DNA from: an uncultured Hyphomicrobiales bacterium
GTDB taxonomy: Bacteria; Bacteroidota; Ignavibacteria; Kapaibacteriales; UBA2268
DNA: 64,000 nucleotides
Assembly: GCA_964610885.1 (NCBI GenBank)
Contig: CAZSWR010000002.1
Span: 23,811-87,810, forward strand
Direction: 5' to 3'
The notes below the pieces were generated by a model. It was not told where the DNA came from. It ran no database searches and saw nothing but the letters and a program-made list of their open reading frames with translations. The position numbers were made by a program, and so were the translations under genes. Below are positions 2,337 through 34,476 of this stretch, piece after piece. The first letter of the stretch is position 1. Every line of letters begins with the position of its first letter.

Positions 2337-5300
2337 TGTTAGAGAAACTTATTTCGATGACTTTGTCGCGAAGAGGCATGATAATTTTCGTATCCTTGCT
2401 TATCGTTGCCTTCGGCGTTTATTCGGCAATGAACATCAACATTGATGCTTTCCCGGACGTAACAAACAACCAGGTCGAAATCGTTAGCCGTGCCGGAGGA
2501 CTCTCTGCAGTGGAAATCGAACGTAACGTTACGTATCCGATCGAGACTGCAATGAAAGGGTTGCCCGGAATTGTGCAGATGCGATCTGTTACGAAATTCG
2601 GTTTGTCGATCGTTACAATCGTTTTCAAAGAGAATGTAGATATTTATTTTGCCCGCCAACTCGTTTTCGAGAGATTGGACGAAGCCAAAGACAATCTTCC
2701 CAAAGGCGTTGAGGTCGAGATGGGGCCTATGGCCACAGTTATGGGCGAGATTTATCAGTACAATCTCGAAGGCACAATGCCCAAGGATTCAGCCGAAAAG
2801 GTTGCATATCTGACCAATCTTCGAACAATCCAGGAATGGATTATTACCCCTCAGCTGAAAAACGTACCGGGAGTGAATGAAATCAACTCATACGGCGGTT
2901 ATTTCAAACAATACCAAGTGGTTATCAGCCCCGAAAAGCTATTAAAATACAATGTAACGGTCAACGATATTTTTGAAGCACTCGAAAACAACAACCAAAA
3001 CGCCGGCGGAAATATTATCGAAAACGGATCGGATCAATATATTGTCAGGGGCGTTGGCCTTATAAAAGATACTATTGATATTTCGAATATCGTCCTGAAG
3101 GAAACCGGTGGCGTCCCCACTTTTATCGGCGATGTGGCTCAAGTTAGGATTGGCGAGGCAGTACGAATGGGAGCCGCTCTGAAAAATGGCGAAGAAACAG
3201 TTGGCGGCATTGTAATGATGTTGCGCGGCGAAAACAGCCGCAACGTTGTGCAGAGCGTCAAAGAGAATGTCAAGGAAATAAACAACAACAATATCCTGCC
3301 ACCGGGAATCAAAATTGTCCCGTATTACGACCGTACAGATATTGTTGACGATAGTGTCTATACAATTGTCCGGGCGCTACTCGAAGGTTCGGTGTTGGTA
3401 TTGGTAATCACTTTCATCCTTCTGAGGAGTTTTCGTGGATCGGCAGTTATTTTGATCGCGTTGCCGGTTTCACTTTTGCTGACGTTTATTATGATGAAAC
3501 TAACCGGAATCGGGGCTAATCTAATGTCGATCGGAGGTCTGGTCATTTCGACCGGCATGAAGTTCGATGCGTCGATTATCCAAGTGGAAAACGTGCAGCG
3601 ATTGCTCAACGATCATCCGGGAAAAACCGGACGATTCAAAACGGTTCTTAAAGCCATCATGGATGTTCGGAAGCCGAGTATCTATGGCGAAGTCATTATT
3701 GCAATTACTTTTATTCCAATTTTAGCCCTCGAAGGCACCGAAGGTAAGATGTTCGCTCCGCTTGCGATAACGGTTATTCTTGCAATTGCGGCTTCGCTGC
3801 TAATGTCGATATTCGTCATACCTCAATTGTGCGGTACTTTTCTAAAGCCCCAACAGGAAAAAGAAAGTCCCGTGATGCGATTCTTTTCGAAGCAATATTT
3901 GCCGTTATTAAAATTTGCGATCAAAAAGAAGTATCTTTTGTTGTCGATAGCCGGAATTGCTCTGGTAGGATCGCTTTTCCTGTTTGGCAAGCTCGGTACG
4001 GAATTCATTCCGATTATGGACGAGGGCGCTTTCGATATGGATATTTCGCTTTTGCCGGGAGTTTCGCTTGCAAAAGCTGTGGATATTAACAAAATGGCTG
4101 CCGACAAATTGAAAAACTTCAACGAGCTTGATGTGGCTGTTTGCCGAATCGGACAAACAGGAGTCGCTCTCGACACTCGCGGAGCCGATAAAACCGGTTA
4201 CGTCGGCGTGCTAAGGCCGAAGAACGAATGGAAGAGAGACATTTCGCGCGAAGAGCTGACTCAGGAGATGAGAGACTCGCTGAACCAAATTCCGGGCATA
4301 GCCTTCGGATTCAGTCAGCCTATTCAGTGCCGGATTGACGAAATCGTGGCCGGAACGCGAGCGCAATTAATCCTTAAACTTTTTGGCGACGACATAGAAA
4401 TTCTGAAGAAAAAATCTGAGGAAATAGCGAAAGTCCTTTCGGGAATAAAAGGCGCCACGGATTTAGTAACAGAAAAAATAACTGGTCAGCCATATTTAAC
4501 CATCACTATCGACAGGAAAAAAATATCGCGATACGGTTTGAATGTAGCGGATATCCAAAAAGTGATTGAAATGGCAATCGCCGGTAAGTCAGCTTCAAGC
4601 CTTTATGAAGGGAATAAAAGGTTCGATATCACTGTCCGTTTGCCCGAAGAAAAAAGGAATTCAGTTGATGCAATCAAGGATATCTTTGTCCCGTCAAAAT
4701 CAGGTGCAAACGTGCCGTTGGCACAACTTGCCGATATAAAAATGACAGAAGGCCCGGTTCAAATTAGCAGGCAAGATGGCGTTAGGCGCGTCGGAATCGA
4801 GATGAATATTTCGGGCAGAGATATGGGTGGCTTTGTTGCCGAAGCCAAACAGAAAATCGCCTCGAAAGTTAATTTGCCATCCGGTTATTATTTAACTTGG
4901 GGCGGCCAATTTGAAAATCAGCAAAGAGCCATGACGAAATTAATGATAATCGTACCAGTTGCAATTGGTTTGATTTTACTTTTGCTGTTTGTTACTTTCA
5001 AATCGATACGTTTGTCATTTCTTGTCATTCTGAATCTTCCATTCGCCTTGATAGGCGGTGTGCTGGCATTGTGGATTTCGGGACTGTATTTATCGGTTCC
5101 TGCATCTGTAGGATTCATTGTTTTGCTCGGAGTTGCTGTGCTGAATGGAGTCGTATTGGTTACTCACATATCTCATCTGCGCGATGAAGGTATGGATAAG
5201 GACTCGGCAATTATGCAAGGGAGCATCGACAGGCTGCGTCCGGTATTGATGACGGCTTTTATTACAATTTTTAGTTTGATTCCATCGTTGATAGCTACAG

Positions 5301-29159: not shown

Positions 29160-29642
29160 TTATTTGTCCAGCCTGTCCAAGATGGTGTTTTCAAAGACGC
29201 CTTTGGACGCTTCAACAATCTCGATTTCGTTGTCAAATGAAAACTTACCTCTTGGTATTTCTTGATTGCATTTCAAGAAAAACTTAGTATTAATAATGAC
29301 TCTACACTCTTCATTGCTCATTGGAACGATTTGAATCTTCGTCGTATCAAAAAATCGGGACAATGTCGTTATGTGATTGTACTCTTGAGTGCTGACAAGT
29401 GTTTTTAGCTTCTCGAGCGACAAGTCTCCCGCGGCTGTTATCAATCCGGCATTCTGGTCCGAATCGACGACTGTATGGCCAATGTCGGAGAGTATTGTCG
29501 GTAAATCATTCCAAACGGATGACTTACTCTTATTAATAATTCGATAGTTCTTCGAGAAATTCGAGTATTCATCGTGTTCGTTCCTGCTGCAAGACAGGAA
29601 CAGAATACTCAGAATAATGCCGTATTTAATTAACTTTTTCAT
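29160..29642 (-). CDS. Hypothetical lipoprotein encoded between kdpB and kdpC
   Basis: 160 aa. Signal MKKLIKYGIILSILFLSCS. No recognisable family. Packed tightly (7 nt after kdpB, 11 nt before kdpC) on the operon strand. Confidence 0.5.
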   Translation of the reverse strand: MKKLIKYGIILSILFLSCSRNEHDEYSNFSKNYRIINKSKSSVWNDLPTILSDIGHTVVDSDQNAGLITAAGDLSLEKLKTLVSTQEYNHITTLSRFFDTTKIQIVPMSNEECRVIINTKFFLKCNQEIPRGKFSFDNEIEIVEASKGVFENTILDRLDK

Positions 29643-29649
29643 GACAATC

Positions 29650-31752
29650 TCATATTAAATGTAGAACTTCAATTAGTGTATCAATTGCTTTTATACCGAG
29701 GAAAGGCACCAATACGCCACCCACTCCGTAAATGAAAATATTCCGCCTCAGAATCGAAGATGCGCTTCTCGGTTCATATTTGACGCCCTTCAGCGCAAGT
29801 GGAATCAATGCTACGATTATGAGTGCGTTAAAAATTATCGAACTCAAAACGGCGCTCTCGGGGCTGGCCAGGTGCATAATGTTCAATTTCGACAGCGCTC
29901 CCGTACCATTAATGACATACAGAGAACCGAATATCGCGGGCAGAATTGCAAAATACTTCGCTACGTCGTTTGCAATGCTGAACGTCGTCAGCGCTCCGCG
30001 TGTCATTAGTAATTGCTTGCCAATTTCGACCACGTCAATTAGTTTCGTCGGGTTGGAATCGAGATCCACCATGTTCCCTGCTTCGCGCGCGGCTTGGGTT
30101 CCCGAGTTCATGGCAACGCCAACGTCGGCTTGCGCGAGGGCCGGAGCGTCGTTAGTGCCATCGCCAATCATGGCAACAAGTTTGCCTTCGGCCTGCTCGT
30201 GGCGGATTCTGTTTAATTTATCCTCGGGCGTCGCCTCGGCAATAAAATCATCAACACCGGCCTCGGCAGCGATGGAAACTGCCGTCAAGGGGTTGTCTCC
30301 GGTGATCATTACCGTCTTGATGCCCATTTTTCTCAGCTTCTCGAAGCGCTCCTTGATCCCTCCTTTGACGACATCTTTCAGCCTGATCACGCCCAAGATT
30401 TTGTCGCCCTCGCACACGACGAGCGGTGTGGAACCTTCGGAGGCAACGTCCTCGACAATTTTATCTATTTCCGTCGGGCACTCGCCACCGATTTCGCAGA
30501 CGTAGCTTTTGATTGATTCGGCTGCTCCTTTCCGTATCCGAATCTCTTTGCCTCCTTTTTTGATATCGACTCCGCTCATCTTGGTTTGGGCGGTGAAAGG
30601 GATAAACGTGAGCGACGAATCCTCGATTTGTTTGCCCCTCAGGTTGAATTCCTTCTTGGCAAGGACCAGGATTGAGCGCCCCTCGGGTGTGTCGTCCGAA
30701 AGCGAAGACAATTGCGCCCGCTCGGCAAGGTAGTTCACATCGACCCCTTTGACTGGAATGAACTCCGAAGCCATTCTGTTGCCCAACGTGATGGTGCCGG
30801 TTTTGTCGAGCAACAAGACGTCCACGTCGCCAGCGGCTTCGACGGCTTTTCCGCTCTTCGCGATAATGTTGCGTTTCGTCAGGCGGTCGATTCCGCTTAT
30901 GCCGATAGCGTTCAATAGTCCGCTGATAGTCGTGGGGATCAGGCAAACGATAAGCGAAATCAGAATCGGCAGGCTCAATCGCGATTCAGTTTGGCCCGAT
31001 GCGTTCATTGCATATAGCTCGAATGGCTTCAGCGTGAAGACTGCGATCAGGAAAATTATCGTCATCCCGCTCAAAAGAATTGTCAAAGCGATTTCGTTAG
31101 GCGTCTTTTGGCGTTTGGCGCCTTCGACGAGCGCGATCATTTTGTCGAGGAAAGTATCGCCGGGCATCGACGTGATCTGTATGATAATTCTGTCGCTTAT
31201 CACTTTGGTCCCGCCGGTAACGGCCGAGCGGTCGCCGCCACTTTCGCGGATGACCGGTGCGGATTCGCCTGTGATTGCCGATTCATCCACGCTGGCAATG
31301 CCGTCCACAATATCGCCATCGCCCGGGATGGTGTCCCCGGCCTCGCACACGACGAGGTCGCCAGTTTTCAGTTCTGACGAGAGGATTTTCTGTTCGGCGA
31401 TTCCTTCAAACGCTGCAACGCCCTTTGTCATATTGGGATTAGAGATTTTCCGCGCGTATGTATTCGTCCTCATTTTGCGCAGTGTGTCGGCTTGGGCTTT
31501 GCCGCGGCCCTCGGCGATCGCCTCCGAAAAGTTAGCGAAGAGAACCGTGAACCACAGCCAGAGCGATATTTGCAGATTGAATCCCGACCAATCCACGGCT
31601 GTTATAACTGTCGTGATCACGGCTCCAATAAAGACGATGAACATAATCGGGTTTTTGATTTGCTTTGCCGGACTCATTTTTCGGAAAGAATCGCCCACGG
31701 CGGCTGAAATCAGCTTTTTATCGAATGTTTTTGTTTGATTTTTCATTTTCAT
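29650..31752 (-). CDS. kdpB: Potassium-transporting P-type ATPase subunit KdpB
   Basis: P-type motifs [17 protein letters not shown] and [16 protein letters not shown]. The start is ATG 31752 or 31746, preceded by GGAAGA. The track start at 31782 adds 10 unlikely residues. Confidence 0.95.
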
Positions 31753-31870
31753 TCTTCCTGTCGTTACACACTCACGCTGCAAACTTATCCGAATTGATAT
31801 ATGTATGAAATATGGACATGGCCGGGATTTATAAAGATTTTGTAAAGAAGAGAGAACGGAAATGTCAGAC

Positions 31871-31898
31871 GTAGGGGTTCAAAATTTTGAACCCCTAC
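31871..31898. repeat. REP palindrome GTAGGGGTTCAAAATTTTGAACCCCTAC (AT-core variant)
   Basis: Perfect 28-bp palindrome 104 bp upstream of the RAYT ATG. It is preceded by GTCAGAC, as is the copy at 32742. Confidence 0.9.
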
Positions 31899-32152
31899 AG
31901 ATAAATATATCCCCACACCCCTACTTTTTGACCCCATACTTCTCATAATAAAATAATCAATAAAGAATCCCGTGTCCTATATAAAAACAACAGACTTAAG
32001 CAATGAAATACAACCCCGACACGCACCATCGCAAATCAATCCGTCTGAAGGAATTTGATTATTCGCAGGCCGGATATTATTTTATCACTATTTGCACGCA
32101 TAACCGAGAGCATTTGTTCGGGGATATTAATGAAATCATGGTTCAGAATAAT

Positions 32153-32179
32153 GTAGGGGTTCAAAATTTTGAACCCCAC
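32153..32179. repeat. REP palindrome embedded in frame inside the RAYT ORF (translated [10 protein letters not shown])
   Basis: GTAGGGGTTCAAAATTTTGAACCCCAC lies within the coding sequence. Confidence 0.85.
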
Positions 32180-32329
32180 CAAAAACAAATGAAATTGGAT
32201 GCCGGTGGTAAAATTGTTGAAAAATGTATTGAGGATATCCCTGCTCATTTTCCATTAGCCGAGATCGATCATTATTGCATTATGCCCAACCATCTGCATT
32301 TGATAATAATTATTAACGGACAAATAAAT

Positions 32330-32369
32330 GTAGGGGTTCAAAATGGGGTTCAATATTTTGAACCCCTAC
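32330..32369. repeat. Composite REP inside the RAYT ORF (translated VGVQNGVQYFEPLH)
   Basis: GTAGGGGTTCAAAA-TGGGGTTCAATATTTTGAACCCCTAC has a duplicated left half-site. It lies just after the HUH motif. Confidence 0.8.
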
Positions 32370-32618
32370 ATATTGAACCCGAGAAAAACCAATTTCAAAA
32401 GATAATTCCTTATTCATTAGGATCGATTATTAAAGGATTGAAAAATAGGCGTAACAAAATGGTTTAAAGAGAATACATCAATATATCACGTTTGGCAACG
32501 AAATTATTACGAACACATAATTCGCAATGAGAAAGAATTGTTTGAAATAAGAAAGTATATTGAACTGAATCCTATGAATTGGAACAAAGATGAGTATTTC
32601 GAATAATACAAATATTAA

Positions 32619-32643
32619 CCTGTAGGGGCAATGCCCCTACAGG
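32619..32643. repeat. REP palindrome CCTGTAGGGGCAATGCCCCTACAGG (short-core variant)
   Basis: Perfect palindrome 13 bp downstream of the RAYT stop. Confidence 0.9.
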
Positions 32644-32681
32644 TAGATCTAAACAAAAAGGCGTGTCACATTTTATACATT

Positions 32682-32739
32682 CCTCTCACCCCAACCACTC
32701 CACAACAGGCCCCAAACAAAGAGCGGGCAGAAACGTCAG
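32682..32739 (-). repeat. 58-bp duplicate of the kdpA 3' end (copy of 32808-32865, 1 mismatch)
   Basis: The reverse complement encodes LTFLPALCLGPVVEWLG-stop, like the true kdpA terminus. The single difference (CCT vs CCG) is synonymous. The duplication period is 126 bp. Confidence 0.9.
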
Positions 32740-32741
32740 AC

Positions 32742-32768
32742 GTAGGGGTTCAAAATTTTGAACCCCAA
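32742..32768. repeat. REP palindrome GTAGGGGTTCAAAATTTTGAACCCCAAC
   Basis: Lies between the two copies of the kdpA 3' end and is preceded by GTCAGAC. Confidence 0.85.
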
Positions 32769-32811
32769 CAGACAAATGAACCCCAACAAAAAACAATACA
32801 AACGATACCTC

Positions 32812-34476
32812 TCACCCCAACCACTCCACAACCGGCCCCAAACAAAGAGCGGGCAGAAACGTCAGTGCGCCGACGATGAGTATCACGCCGATCAGGAGGA
32901 ATGCAAATAGCGAAGTGTCCGTGCGGAAGGTGCCTTGCGATACCGGCGTCGTCTTCTTCTCCGAGAGCGATCCGGCAATCACCAACACGGGAATAATCAC
33001 CGCAAACCGACCAACCAGCATGCCAAGCCCGAGCATTATGTTGTAGAAATCCGTGTTCGCGTTCAGCCCGGCAAAGGCCGAACCGTTGTTGCCCGCGGCG
33101 GACGCAAAGGCGTAGAGCACCTCCGAGAACCCGTGCGCGCCGCTCTCGGCAATGCTGCCCAGCCCCTCCGGCACCGACAAAGCAATCGCCGAAAACCCGA
33201 GTATCACAAAACTCGGCGCAATTACGGCGAGCATAGCCATCTGAATTTCCTTCGCCTGAATTTTCTTGCCCAAGTATTCGGGAGTGCGCCCGATCATCAG
33301 CCCGGCAATGAATACGGTCAGCAGGACGAAAATCAACATGCCGTACATTCCTGCGCCCACGCCGCCGAAGACAATTTCGCCCAACATGATGTTGAACATT
33401 GCCACCAAACCGGAGCCGGGCATTAGCGATTCGTGCATGGCATTGACCGAGCCGCTCGAGGCCGCCGTCGTGAAGGTGGACCACATCACGGAATTAGTTA
33501 TCCCGAATCGAGTTTCCTTCCCTTCCAAATTGCCCGCAATCCCAAGCGACGGGTTCATCGAAAACTCCGAATACAGAGAAACCGAAAGCCCGATGGCCAG
33601 CAGCAGCAGCATCACCGCAAACAAAGTCCAGCCTTGGCGCGCGGAGCCGACAATCTTGCCGAATGTAAACGTCAGGGCGGCGGGAATGAGCAAAATGGAG
33701 AGCATCTGCAACAGATTGCTAATCGGTGTGGGGTTCTCGAATGGGAAAGCAGAATTGGCATTAAAGAATCCACCGCCGTTCGTGCCGAGCTGCTTGATGG
33801 CGATTTGCGACGCTGCCGGCCCGCCGGGGATCGTTTGCTTGATGCCTTCGAGCGTGCTGGCATCGGTATAGGCGTTAAAGTTCTGAATCACGCCCTGGGA
33901 CACCAACAGAATGGCCAAAAGGGCACTCAGGGGCAGCAGCACGTAAAGAGTTGACCGGGTTACATCGACCCAGAAATTGCCCAATTCGGAGGATTGTTTG
34001 TTTCTGATGCCTCTCGCCAGGGCTATAAAAACCGCGATACCGGTCGCCGCGCTCAGGAAATTCTGAACTGTCAGCCCGGCCATTTGCACGAAGTACGACA
34101 TGGTTGTTTCGCCGGCGTAGGATTGCCAGTTAGTATTCGTCATAAAACTAACTGCCGTATTGAAGGCCAGCGATGGATCGGCGCCGGGGAGTTGTTGCGG
34201 GTTCAGCGGCAAGTACTGCTGGCAGACTTGCAAAAGGAAGACAGCAACGAAACCGAAGGCATTGAAGGCCAGAAGCGAGAAAAGGTAGCTCTTCCAATTC
34301 ATCTGACTGTGGTCGTCGATCCCGAGCAGTTTGTAGAGTTTCAGCTCGAACGTTTTTAGCCATCTGTTGTTAATATCTTTATATAGAACTTGGTAGATAT
34401 ACGTGCCAAGCGGTTTAACTGTAAGTATCAATATTGCCAGCATGGCAACAACTTGGATTATATCGTAAATATTCAT
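32812..34476 (-). CDS. kdpA: Potassium-transporting ATPase subunit KdpA
   Basis: 554-aa polytopic protein with a typical KdpA N-terminus and selectivity-filter-like segments (NTNWQSYAGE, GTNGGGFF). AAGGAGGA lies 6-13 nt upstream of the ATG. Confidence 0.95.
   Translation of the reverse strand: MNIYDIIQVVAMLAILILTVKPLGTYIYQVLYKDINNRWLKTFELKLYKLLGIDDHSQMNWKSYLFSLLAFNAFGFVAVFLLQVCQQYLPLNPQQLPGADPSLAFNTAVSFMTNTNWQSYAGETTMSYFVQMAGLTVQNFLSAATGIAVFIALARGIRNKQSSELGNFWVDVTRSTLYVLLPLSALLAILLVSQGVIQNFNAYTDASTLEGIKQTIPGGPAASQIAIKQLGTNGGGFFNANSAFPFENPTPISNLLQMLSILLIPAALTFTFGKIVGSARQGWTLFAVMLLLLAIGLSVSLYSEFSMNPSLGIAGNLEGKETRFGITNSVMWSTFTTAASSGSVNAMHESLMPGSGLVAMFNIMLGEIVFGGVGAGMYGMLIFVLLTVFIAGLMIGRTPEYLGKKIQAKEIQMAMLAVIAPSFVILGFSAIALSVPEGLGSIAESGAHGFSEVLYAFASAAGNNGSAFAGLNANTDFYNIMLGLGMLVGRFAVIIPVLVIAGSLSEKKTTPVSQGTFRTDTSLFAFLLIGVILIVGALTFLPALCLGPVVEWLG

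Follow-up and report, generated by a model that had tools for sequence, protein, structure and literature searches.

The window, the 64-kb stretch of DNA analysed here, holds a RAYT gene in antisense orientation between kdpA and kdpB. Two copies of the REP palindrome that flanks this gene lie in frame within it, and its reading frame breaks ahead of the catalytic tyrosine codon. An earlier reading made from the letters of the window (the sequence-only reading) had placed the ORF, the HLH motif, the REPs and the A5 run at the coordinates used below, all of which we confirmed against the sequence. The gene features are as follows.

32003–32467, + strand: RAYT/TnpA_REP ORF in frame A, 154 aa, ending in a premature TAA at 32465–32467
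32291–32299, + strand: HUH motif codons H-L-H within MPNHLH, from the sequence and alignment to 4ER8
32441–32445, + strand: A5 run with a one-base insertion; A4 gives ...GLKIGVTKWF...
32442–32606, + strand: C-terminal part of the RAYT, in the +1 frame only, IGVTKWF...WQRNYYEHIIRNE...KYIELNP...EYFE, stop at 32604–32606
32556–32558, + strand: predicted catalytic Tyr codon, the Y of KYIELNP, aligned to Y115 of E. coli TnpA_REP (4ER8)

The gene is a RAYT, as the sequence-only reading had recognized, and its predicted fold is that of HUH/Y1 transposases. Deleting one A yields a repaired protein of 200 aa, which we used as the query for homology search and structure modelling. The search returned 7,094 homologues at E ≤ 0.001, several of them named by their sources as 'REP element-mobilizing transposase RayT', and the HUH histidines, WQR and the Y-I-x-x-N-P helix are invariant in the homologue alignment. 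Compared with the PDB, the family profile matched a single entry, 4ER8, the E. coli TnpA_REP bound to REP. When the repaired protein was modelled with AlphaFold2 (pLDDT 75.8), this structure again gave the best fold match (E 1.4e-06), ahead of the ISDra2, IS608 and IS200 transposases. The protein scores below the curated cut-offs of PF01797 (19.1 bits against 23) and NCBIfam NF047646 (51.9 bits against 80, with the match confined to the C-terminal part), which counts against the overall explanation given below. Most clear homologues likewise have no precomputed Pfam hit, so these models appear poor for subclass 2.4, the group to which we assign the gene.

Frame A encodes the N-terminal conserved motif, the β-hairpin, the HUH strand and the start of helix αC, roughly the N-terminal two thirds of a RAYT. 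Its MPNHLH aligns to the HUH motif of 4ER8, placing the His-hydrophobic-His pattern on a β-strand, and this pattern is invariant in 28 homologues. The frame-A product lacks the WQ motif and the catalytic tyrosine (YIELNP) because the extra A shifts the frame before the end of αC. The +1 frame is open from 32442 and translates as K-IGVTKWFKENTSIYHVWQRNYYEHIIRNEKELFEIRKYIELNPMNWNKDEYFE, that is, K-IGVTKWF...VWQRNYYEHIIRNE...KYIELNP...EYFE. As the gene stands, the tyrosine codon lies in this frame, past the frame-A stop; removal of one A from the A5 run brings it into the same frame as the HUH motif and gives ...SLGSIIKGLKIGVTKWF..., a residue-for-residue match to the family consensus. The proposal that a single extra A divides the HUH-bearing portion from the Tyr-bearing one, with A4 restoring GLKIGVTKWF, is thereby borne out. 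The catalytic tyrosine had been sought in NYYEH (32505–32510); it does lie beyond the frameshift, at a different place. The NYYEH tyrosines align to RFWEH in E. coli TnpA_REP and are not catalytic. The catalytic residue of the E. coli enzyme is Y115 in DYIYINP (PMC3479197), and it is the Y of KYIELNP that aligns with it.

To evaluate the shift, we took as reference the nearest homologue with DNA available, L084, from an Ignavibacteria metagenome-assembled genome (59% aa identity). Pairwise alignment places one extra nucleotide in the A-run relative to L084, and the change is a single-base insertion relative to every homologue. Judged from these comparisons, it is probably a genuine inactivating mutation at the A-run, and what remains is most likely an inactive relic of the gene. 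None of the window's large ORFs is broken (1,800, 1,469, 1,260 and 1,057 aa, plus kdpA and kdpB), and a Pfam scan of ten ORFs from adjacent pairs found one family or none in each, with no family split across neighbours. From these ORFs, indel errors appear rare in this assembly, and pervasive frameshifting of the assembly is rejected.

If the shift were an isolated error of assembly or sequencing, or a minority variant taken up into the consensus, the organism would have an intact 200-aa RAYT. We consider this unlikely, with several observations in its favour: the shift sits in a homopolymer (A5 where A4 is expected), removal of one base gives a consensus-perfect protein with HUH, WQ and YIELNP all intact and no other defect, and the sequence is carried by one contig only. 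The unbroken large ORFs and unsplit families argue against it, as does the length of the run, five A's being a short run for most platforms to misread.

Other transposase families are known to use programmed frameshifting, and the AAA-A context would let tRNA-Lys re-pair in the +1 frame. However, it is very improbable that +1 ribosomal frameshifting or transcriptional slippage at the A-run joins the two frames here and limits transposase dosage, a dependence on slippage that the sequence-only reading had also put forward: L084, also with a 5-A run, is in frame through the same codons, the reading frame is unbroken in 79 of 80 genome homologues, five A's are too short for efficient transcriptional slippage, and no stimulatory element was identified. 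Four of the 80 loci gave no in-frame HUH..WQ match to a regular expression. Three of these are intact motif variants and the fourth, L004, is an ordinary pseudogene with an in-frame stop and NQIH replacing the HUH motif, the sole visibly dead gene among the 80 genome loci. A shift at the same position was found in none of the four, which, for the 80 loci covered, rules out a frameshift shared or programmed across the family.

The locus is a REPtron, a RAYT gene with its own REPs on both sides. The repeats and their copies within the gene are arranged as follows.

31871–31898, no strand: left flanking REP GTAGGGGTTCAAAATTTTGAACCCCTAC, a perfect 28-nt double-foot palindrome; DNA hairpin of −12.3 kcal/mol, z −7.9
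32139–32186, + strand: site-1 insertion of 48 nt (16 codons, none of them in L084), holding REP copy 1 (32153–32179) without the right foot CCCCAC
32156–32177: copy of the 22-nt REP core, from the core search of the 64 kb
32330–32384, + strand: site-2 REP region, in the loop that joins the HUH strand to αC; a 17-bp stem is still predicted
32345–32366: copy of the 22-nt core with one mismatch, from the same search
32618–32644, no strand: second-type palindrome with GTAG foot, ACCTGTAGGGGCA-A-TGCCCCTACAGGT (GTAG...CTAC), 12 nt past the RAYT stop
32742–32769, no strand: right flanking REP, with a core identical to that of the left REP and an imperfect right foot, CCCCAAC
32745–32766: copy of the 22-nt core, from the same search

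The left flanking REP is part of a ~70-nt repeat unit (31848–31917), a second copy of which lies at 32719–32788. At the kdpA–kdpB junction that holds the REPtron, 61 nt of the tail of kdpA are duplicated. The short hairpin form and the conserved GTAG foot both fit the GTAG class of REPs, and the flanking copies have the double foot (5′ GT[AG]G, 3′ C[TC]AC) described for subclass 2.4: the left one is a perfect GTAG...CTAC and the right one shares its core. Every REP copy is predicted to fold as a stable DNA hairpin (−9.2 to −16.9 kcal/mol, z −3.1 to −7.9). The 22-nt core occurs four times in 64 kb against 0.01 expected by chance, and all four copies are confined to 31871–32769; a search of the 64-kb window found no further REP copies outside this interval. 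Chance palindromes are ruled out by this count together with the ~9- to 19-fold higher density of hairpins in the HUH–WQ loop than elsewhere in the ORF or in flanking DNA. The second-type palindrome downstream of the gene has a positional homologue in the GTTAGGGGCACGGCATGCCGTG... repeat that follows a related gene in locus L081.

At the DNA level, the segments inside the gene repeat the palindrome of the flanking REPs. As had been proposed, there are two of them in frame, both in phase 0: copy 1 (32153–32179) in frame A, and a composite copy 2 (32330–32369) that reads VGVQNGVQYFEPLH. The AT-rich REP of the window holds the stops TGA and TAG in phases 1 and 2. Only phase 0, at a length that is a multiple of three, can therefore survive within an ORF, and in-frame copies always read VGVQNFEPL.

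The two sites differ in their structure relative to L084. The first insertion had been estimated at 17–20 residues, and alignment to this nearest homologue gives 16 (48 nt, 32139–32186). In the model, it occupies the tip of a β-hairpin (residues 47–58, with strands 40–46 and 59–65 on either side). Site 2 corresponds to residues 111–132, modelled with a pLDDT of ~40 between the HUH strand and the helix at 139–157. L084 has one plain REP there, to which the window adds 27 nt, or 9 codons, in two blocks of 12 nt (32343–32354) and 15 nt (32370–32384). Fragments of the left arm and of the right arm are both repeated, and by alignment the extra 27 nt would fit a second REP unit, either nested within the first or a duplicate of it. 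The site-2 REP is identical between the window and L084 at 28 of 28 positions, loop bases included, compared with 66.6% identity over the other aligned coding DNA. The window and L081 form a mosaic whose breakpoints precede site 1 by ~20–50 nt and follow site 2 by ~120 nt; these positions, away from the REPs, rule out recombination breakpoints at the REPs themselves.

We surveyed homologues at 80 genomic loci, which represent Bacteroidota, Ignavibacteria, Chloroflexota, Cyanobacteria, Nitrospirota, Planctomycetota, several classes of proteobacteria, Spirochaetia and further groups; 76 of these loci have an in-frame HUH..WQ match. A perfect hairpin (stem ≥ 9) lies between HUH and WQ in 59 of the 76, and the remaining 17 have no strong hairpin there. 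Hairpin density per kb is 4.6 between HUH and WQ, compared with 0.5 elsewhere in the ORF and 0.24 in flanking DNA. At 35 of the 59 loci, L084 to L086, L004 and L009 among them, the internal hairpin has no second copy within ~5 kb. A REP-bearing transposase gene, which the sequence-only reading had taken to be unusual, is thus the rule in these homologues and a recognized hallmark of subclass 2.4 (PMC6006769). Some homologues carry partial tandem repeats of the segment (five times in L021, three times in L013 and L061), a pattern that hairpin slippage would be expected to leave.

Almost all of 27 aligned homologues have VGVQNFEPL or a close variant just past the HUH motif, and a subset has a second segment of this type before helix αA. 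Peptide variants include VGVENFQPL, VGAKNFSPL and VGARHAVPL, among others. At the DNA level the feet GTAGG...CCTAC are shared, and the inner arms vary between lineages and change together (TTCAAAATTTTGAA, CGAAAAATTTTTCG, CACGGCATGCCGTG, CGCAGCATGCTGCG and CGACGCATGCGTCG). Across 31 distinct 28-mers, 99.2% of cells are paired, with 82 double-sided changes, and no shuffle or slid register comes near; only 28-mers with both feet and a minimum of 10 paired positions out of 14 entered this count, which overstates the signal and leaves the hairpin density as the unbiased figure. The segment is read in phase 0 in 33 cases, in phase 1 in 9 and never in phase 2, which would read TAG. One identical 28-mer, GTAGGGGCACGGCATGCCGTGCCCCTAC, is translated as VGARHAVPL in L020, L026 and L050 and as RGTACRAPT in L024 and L079.

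Because the arms co-vary and the same 28-mer is read in two phases, it is the DNA palindrome that is constrained, rather than the peptide; on this comparative evidence, the conserved object across the family is the palindrome. The sequence-only reading had held that NVGVQNFEP segments conserved in homologues with non-palindromic DNA would speak against REPs within the gene. The peptide is indeed conserved, but the DNA is palindromic too, with compensatory arms and two reading phases, and the REP-in-gene interpretation stands. That VGVQNFEPL is a conserved peptide motif of the enzyme whose palindromic DNA is incidental has next to no probability, even with its same placement in most close homologues, given the compensatory inner-arm changes, the RGTACRAPT translation of an identical 28-mer, the presence of the window's own 28-mer beside the gene and dispersed in intergenic DNA, and the predicted disorder of the segment.

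The exact 28-mer of the window occurs in at least 120 metagenome stretches, and 87 matches in 80 metagenome loci were listed. Among the matches listed, 17 occupy the site-2 position in a RAYT gene, 8 have a RAYT no more than 400 nt away, 40 have no detectable RAYT within 1 kb and 22 are too near a contig end to call. Among these listed matches, ~30 of the 40 dispersed copies fall in short open frames and are probably intergenic, and ~10 are in frame in ORFs of at least 150 aa, including ORFs of 1,257, 745 and 641 aa; intragenic GTAG REPs, which these ~10 in-frame 28-mers match, have been described by Di Nocera et al. 2013 (PMC3733652). A repeat that lands widely and survives in genes only in phase 0 supports an origin of the in-gene copies by insertion followed by a reading-frame filter.

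We propose that single-strand insertion, the process by which REPs are scattered elsewhere, also brings the in-gene REPs into place. They would then be reshaped by hairpin-provoked slippage, which could have produced the 12 + 15-nt composite here and the partial tandem repeats in homologues. Copies may persist because two surface loops, the tip of the N-terminal β-hairpin and the loop between the HUH strand and αC, are permissive. In the last step, the extra A in the A-run would have inactivated the gene. With high confidence, then, we describe the locus as a subclass 2.4 REPtron with REP copies in two permissive loops and a gene that has since been frameshifted. Against this explanation, the window holds only four REP copies, all within the REPtron. 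Against the view of the internal copies as passengers, the high occupancy and perfect stems of site 2 could equally mean a selected function, and the 35 of 59 loci without a second copy within ~5 kb are a poor fit to simple spill-over from flanking REPs.

Alternatively, the in-gene REP may not be a tolerated passenger but serve a cis function. As a hairpin in single-stranded DNA or mRNA, it could be bound by the RAYT and so allow the enzyme to sense or regulate the gene that encodes it, or it could be a protected 'master copy' that links REP sequence and enzyme specificity as the gene moves between genomes. Occupancy of site 2 across many phyla with mostly perfect stems, the complete identity of the REP between the window and L084 amid diverged coding DNA, and the many loci in which the in-gene copy is the sole one within ~5 kb all favour such a function. 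We nevertheless hold it to be doubtful. Site 2 lacks a strong hairpin in 17 of 76 homologues; copy number, loop position and length are highly variable, with frequent partial tandem duplications, which is more like mutational turnover; the same REP lies in frame in unrelated genes; and the conservation is also explained if recognition by the RAYT constrains all REPs of the family.

We offer only as a tentative idea, with the odds clearly against it, that the in-gene REP of subclass 2.4 RAYTs is a selected part of the system, either as an autoregulatory self-recognition hairpin or as a protected master copy that holds repeat and enzyme specificity together during horizontal transfer. If it is selected, the middle of the gene, with its REP, might be a specificity cassette open to exchange, as hinted by the window/L081 mosaic. 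Most subclass 2.4 RAYTs keep a perfect substrate hairpin in their own coding sequence, far better conserved than the neighbouring codons. Should the enzyme bind or cleave its own gene, this would build feedback into the relation between a domesticated transposase and its repeats, and would provide a handle on the co-evolution of REP sequence and RAYT specificity.

In-gene, in-frame, double-foot REPs were described by Quentin, Siguier, Chandler and Fichant (2018, BMC Genomics 19:475; PMC6006769) as a unique feature of TnpA_Y1 subclass 2.4. A literature search for functional work on in-gene REPs, or for later work on subclass 2.4, found nothing beyond that paper. The subclass corresponds to Bertels RAYT group 4, has a length of ~194 aa and is marked by NH[IFV]H, WQ and YIxNNP. 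Its hosts are Cyanobacteria, Bacteroidetes and scattered phyla, and its 'double foot' REPs end in 5′ GT[AG]G and 3′ C[TC]AC. The insertions are 'generally' between HuH and Y, in a variable-length loop between β3 and αC that was modelled as a peripheral extension (PMC6006769). According to Bertels et al. 2017, group 4 is rare in Proteobacteria and common in Cyanobacteria, Chlorobia and Caldilineae, and its flanking 16-mers are only moderately repeated, which fits the lack of other REP copies in the window.

The gene is most likely a member of TnpA_Y1 subclass 2.4 (Bertels group 4). It shares with the subclass the N-H-u-H, WQ, Y-I-x-x-N-P and N-terminal motifs, the length of ~194 aa, the GT[AG]G/C[TC]AC ends of the REPs, the in-gene REP past the HUH motif (32330–32384) and a patchy taxonomic spread over many phyla. 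Its departures from the consensus are slight: WQ is exact, and NHLH (against NH[IFV]H) and YIELNP (against YIxNNP) are each off by one position, with close homologues showing NH[VI]H and YIxNNP. Beyond the published pattern, this gene has an extra REP upstream of the HUH motif, at the tip of the β-hairpin, its REP at site 2 is a composite formed by nesting or duplication, and its reading frame is shifted.

Two further systems invite comparison. The REPtron of E. coli TnpA_REP (YafM; 4ER8; Messing et al. 2012; Ton-Hoang et al. 2012) has the same HUH/Y1 fold, a GTAG hairpin foot, the catalytic tyrosine in a Y-I-x-x-N-P helix and REPs that flank the gene. By contrast, the E. coli enzyme belongs to subclass 2.2, shares only ~18% identity with the window protein, and has imperfect, bulged, single-foot REPs with none inside its gene. 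The Rickettsia RPEs and the intragenic GTAG/CGTC REPs of Di Nocera et al. 2013 (PMC3733652) are likewise short palindromes in frame in genes and tolerated in loops. Here, unlike in those cases, the host gene encodes the enzyme thought to mobilize the repeat, and the insertion site is common to most of the subfamily. The trait itself was published in 2018, and the window adds a further, apparently inactivated, example of it.

The REPtron, comprising the frameshifted RAYT gene and its flanking REPs, lies in antisense orientation within the kdp operon. Whereas kdpA usually stands next to kdpB, here the whole ~1-kb REPtron parts the two genes, thereby placing five strong hairpins inside the operon transcript. 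Comparison within the window revealed a 61-nt duplication (97% identical), made up of the final 18 kdpA codons and a further 7 nt, with one copy on each side of the right flanking REP and a decayed third copy adjoining the left one. The features are as follows:

34476..32812, kdpA
32805-32865, copy of the kdpA tail
32742-32769, right flanking REP
32679-32739, second copy of the kdpA tail
31871-31898, left flanking REP
31848-31870, third copy of the kdpA tail, first ~23 nt only (AAGAG.G..C.GAAA.GTCAGAC)
31782..29650, kdpB
29160-29642 (-), 160-aa ORF between kdpB and kdpC, inside the operon, without a match in Pfam

The left and right flanking REPs have the junction CCCCTAC-GT-CTGAC in common. 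This pattern of duplication and junction may be a trace of the way in which the REPs or the REPtron were inserted.

Among the 59 genome loci whose homologue has a perfect hairpin between HUH and WQ, 35, including L084–L086, L004 and L009, carry the REP inside the RAYT gene but lack another copy in the surrounding ~5 kb; at many homologous loci, the in-gene copy is thus the only local one. In homologues, the loop between the HUH strand and alphaC often contains tandem partial REP repeats, or two or three full REPs (L021 331-645, L013 5250-5477, L061 4624-4833, L002 and L009), with examples including VGAKDFSGAD five times, NNFSPQPS three times and DDAHPY three times. This suggests that hairpin-driven slippage is the source of the loop's hypervariability. 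In the Bacteroidales homologue at L004 (5001-5603), an in-frame stop codon interrupts the first beta-strand and HUH has become NQIH. This gene is clearly a pseudogene, yet it retains perfect in-gene REPs at both sites.

We compared window segments 31950-32130 and 32490-32650 with the RAYT gene of L081, a locus from another metagenome (3950-4650; protein P0084). Both gene ends are ~97–100% identical, and the agreement takes in ~55 nt of upstream sequence as well as where the 3′ palindrome lies. The centre of the L081 gene, from about codon 30 to WQ, belongs to another subtype and holds a different REP type, GTAGGGGCACGGCATGCCGT, translated RGTACRA. The two genes are related as a mosaic, which looks as though the REP-bearing core had been swapped. 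In the window gene, all four segments match the VGVQNFEPL clade, so the probable recombinant is L081.

Among the matches listed, the window's exact 28-mer REP also occurs in metagenome contigs in frame, read VGVQNFEPL, within large unrelated open reading frames of 1257 aa (L115), 745 aa (L128), 641 aa (L159) and 210 aa (L153), and in unrelated ORFs at L138 and L097. These are of the same kind as the in-frame intragenic insertions reported for other GTAG REPs (Di Nocera et al. 2013, PMC3733652).
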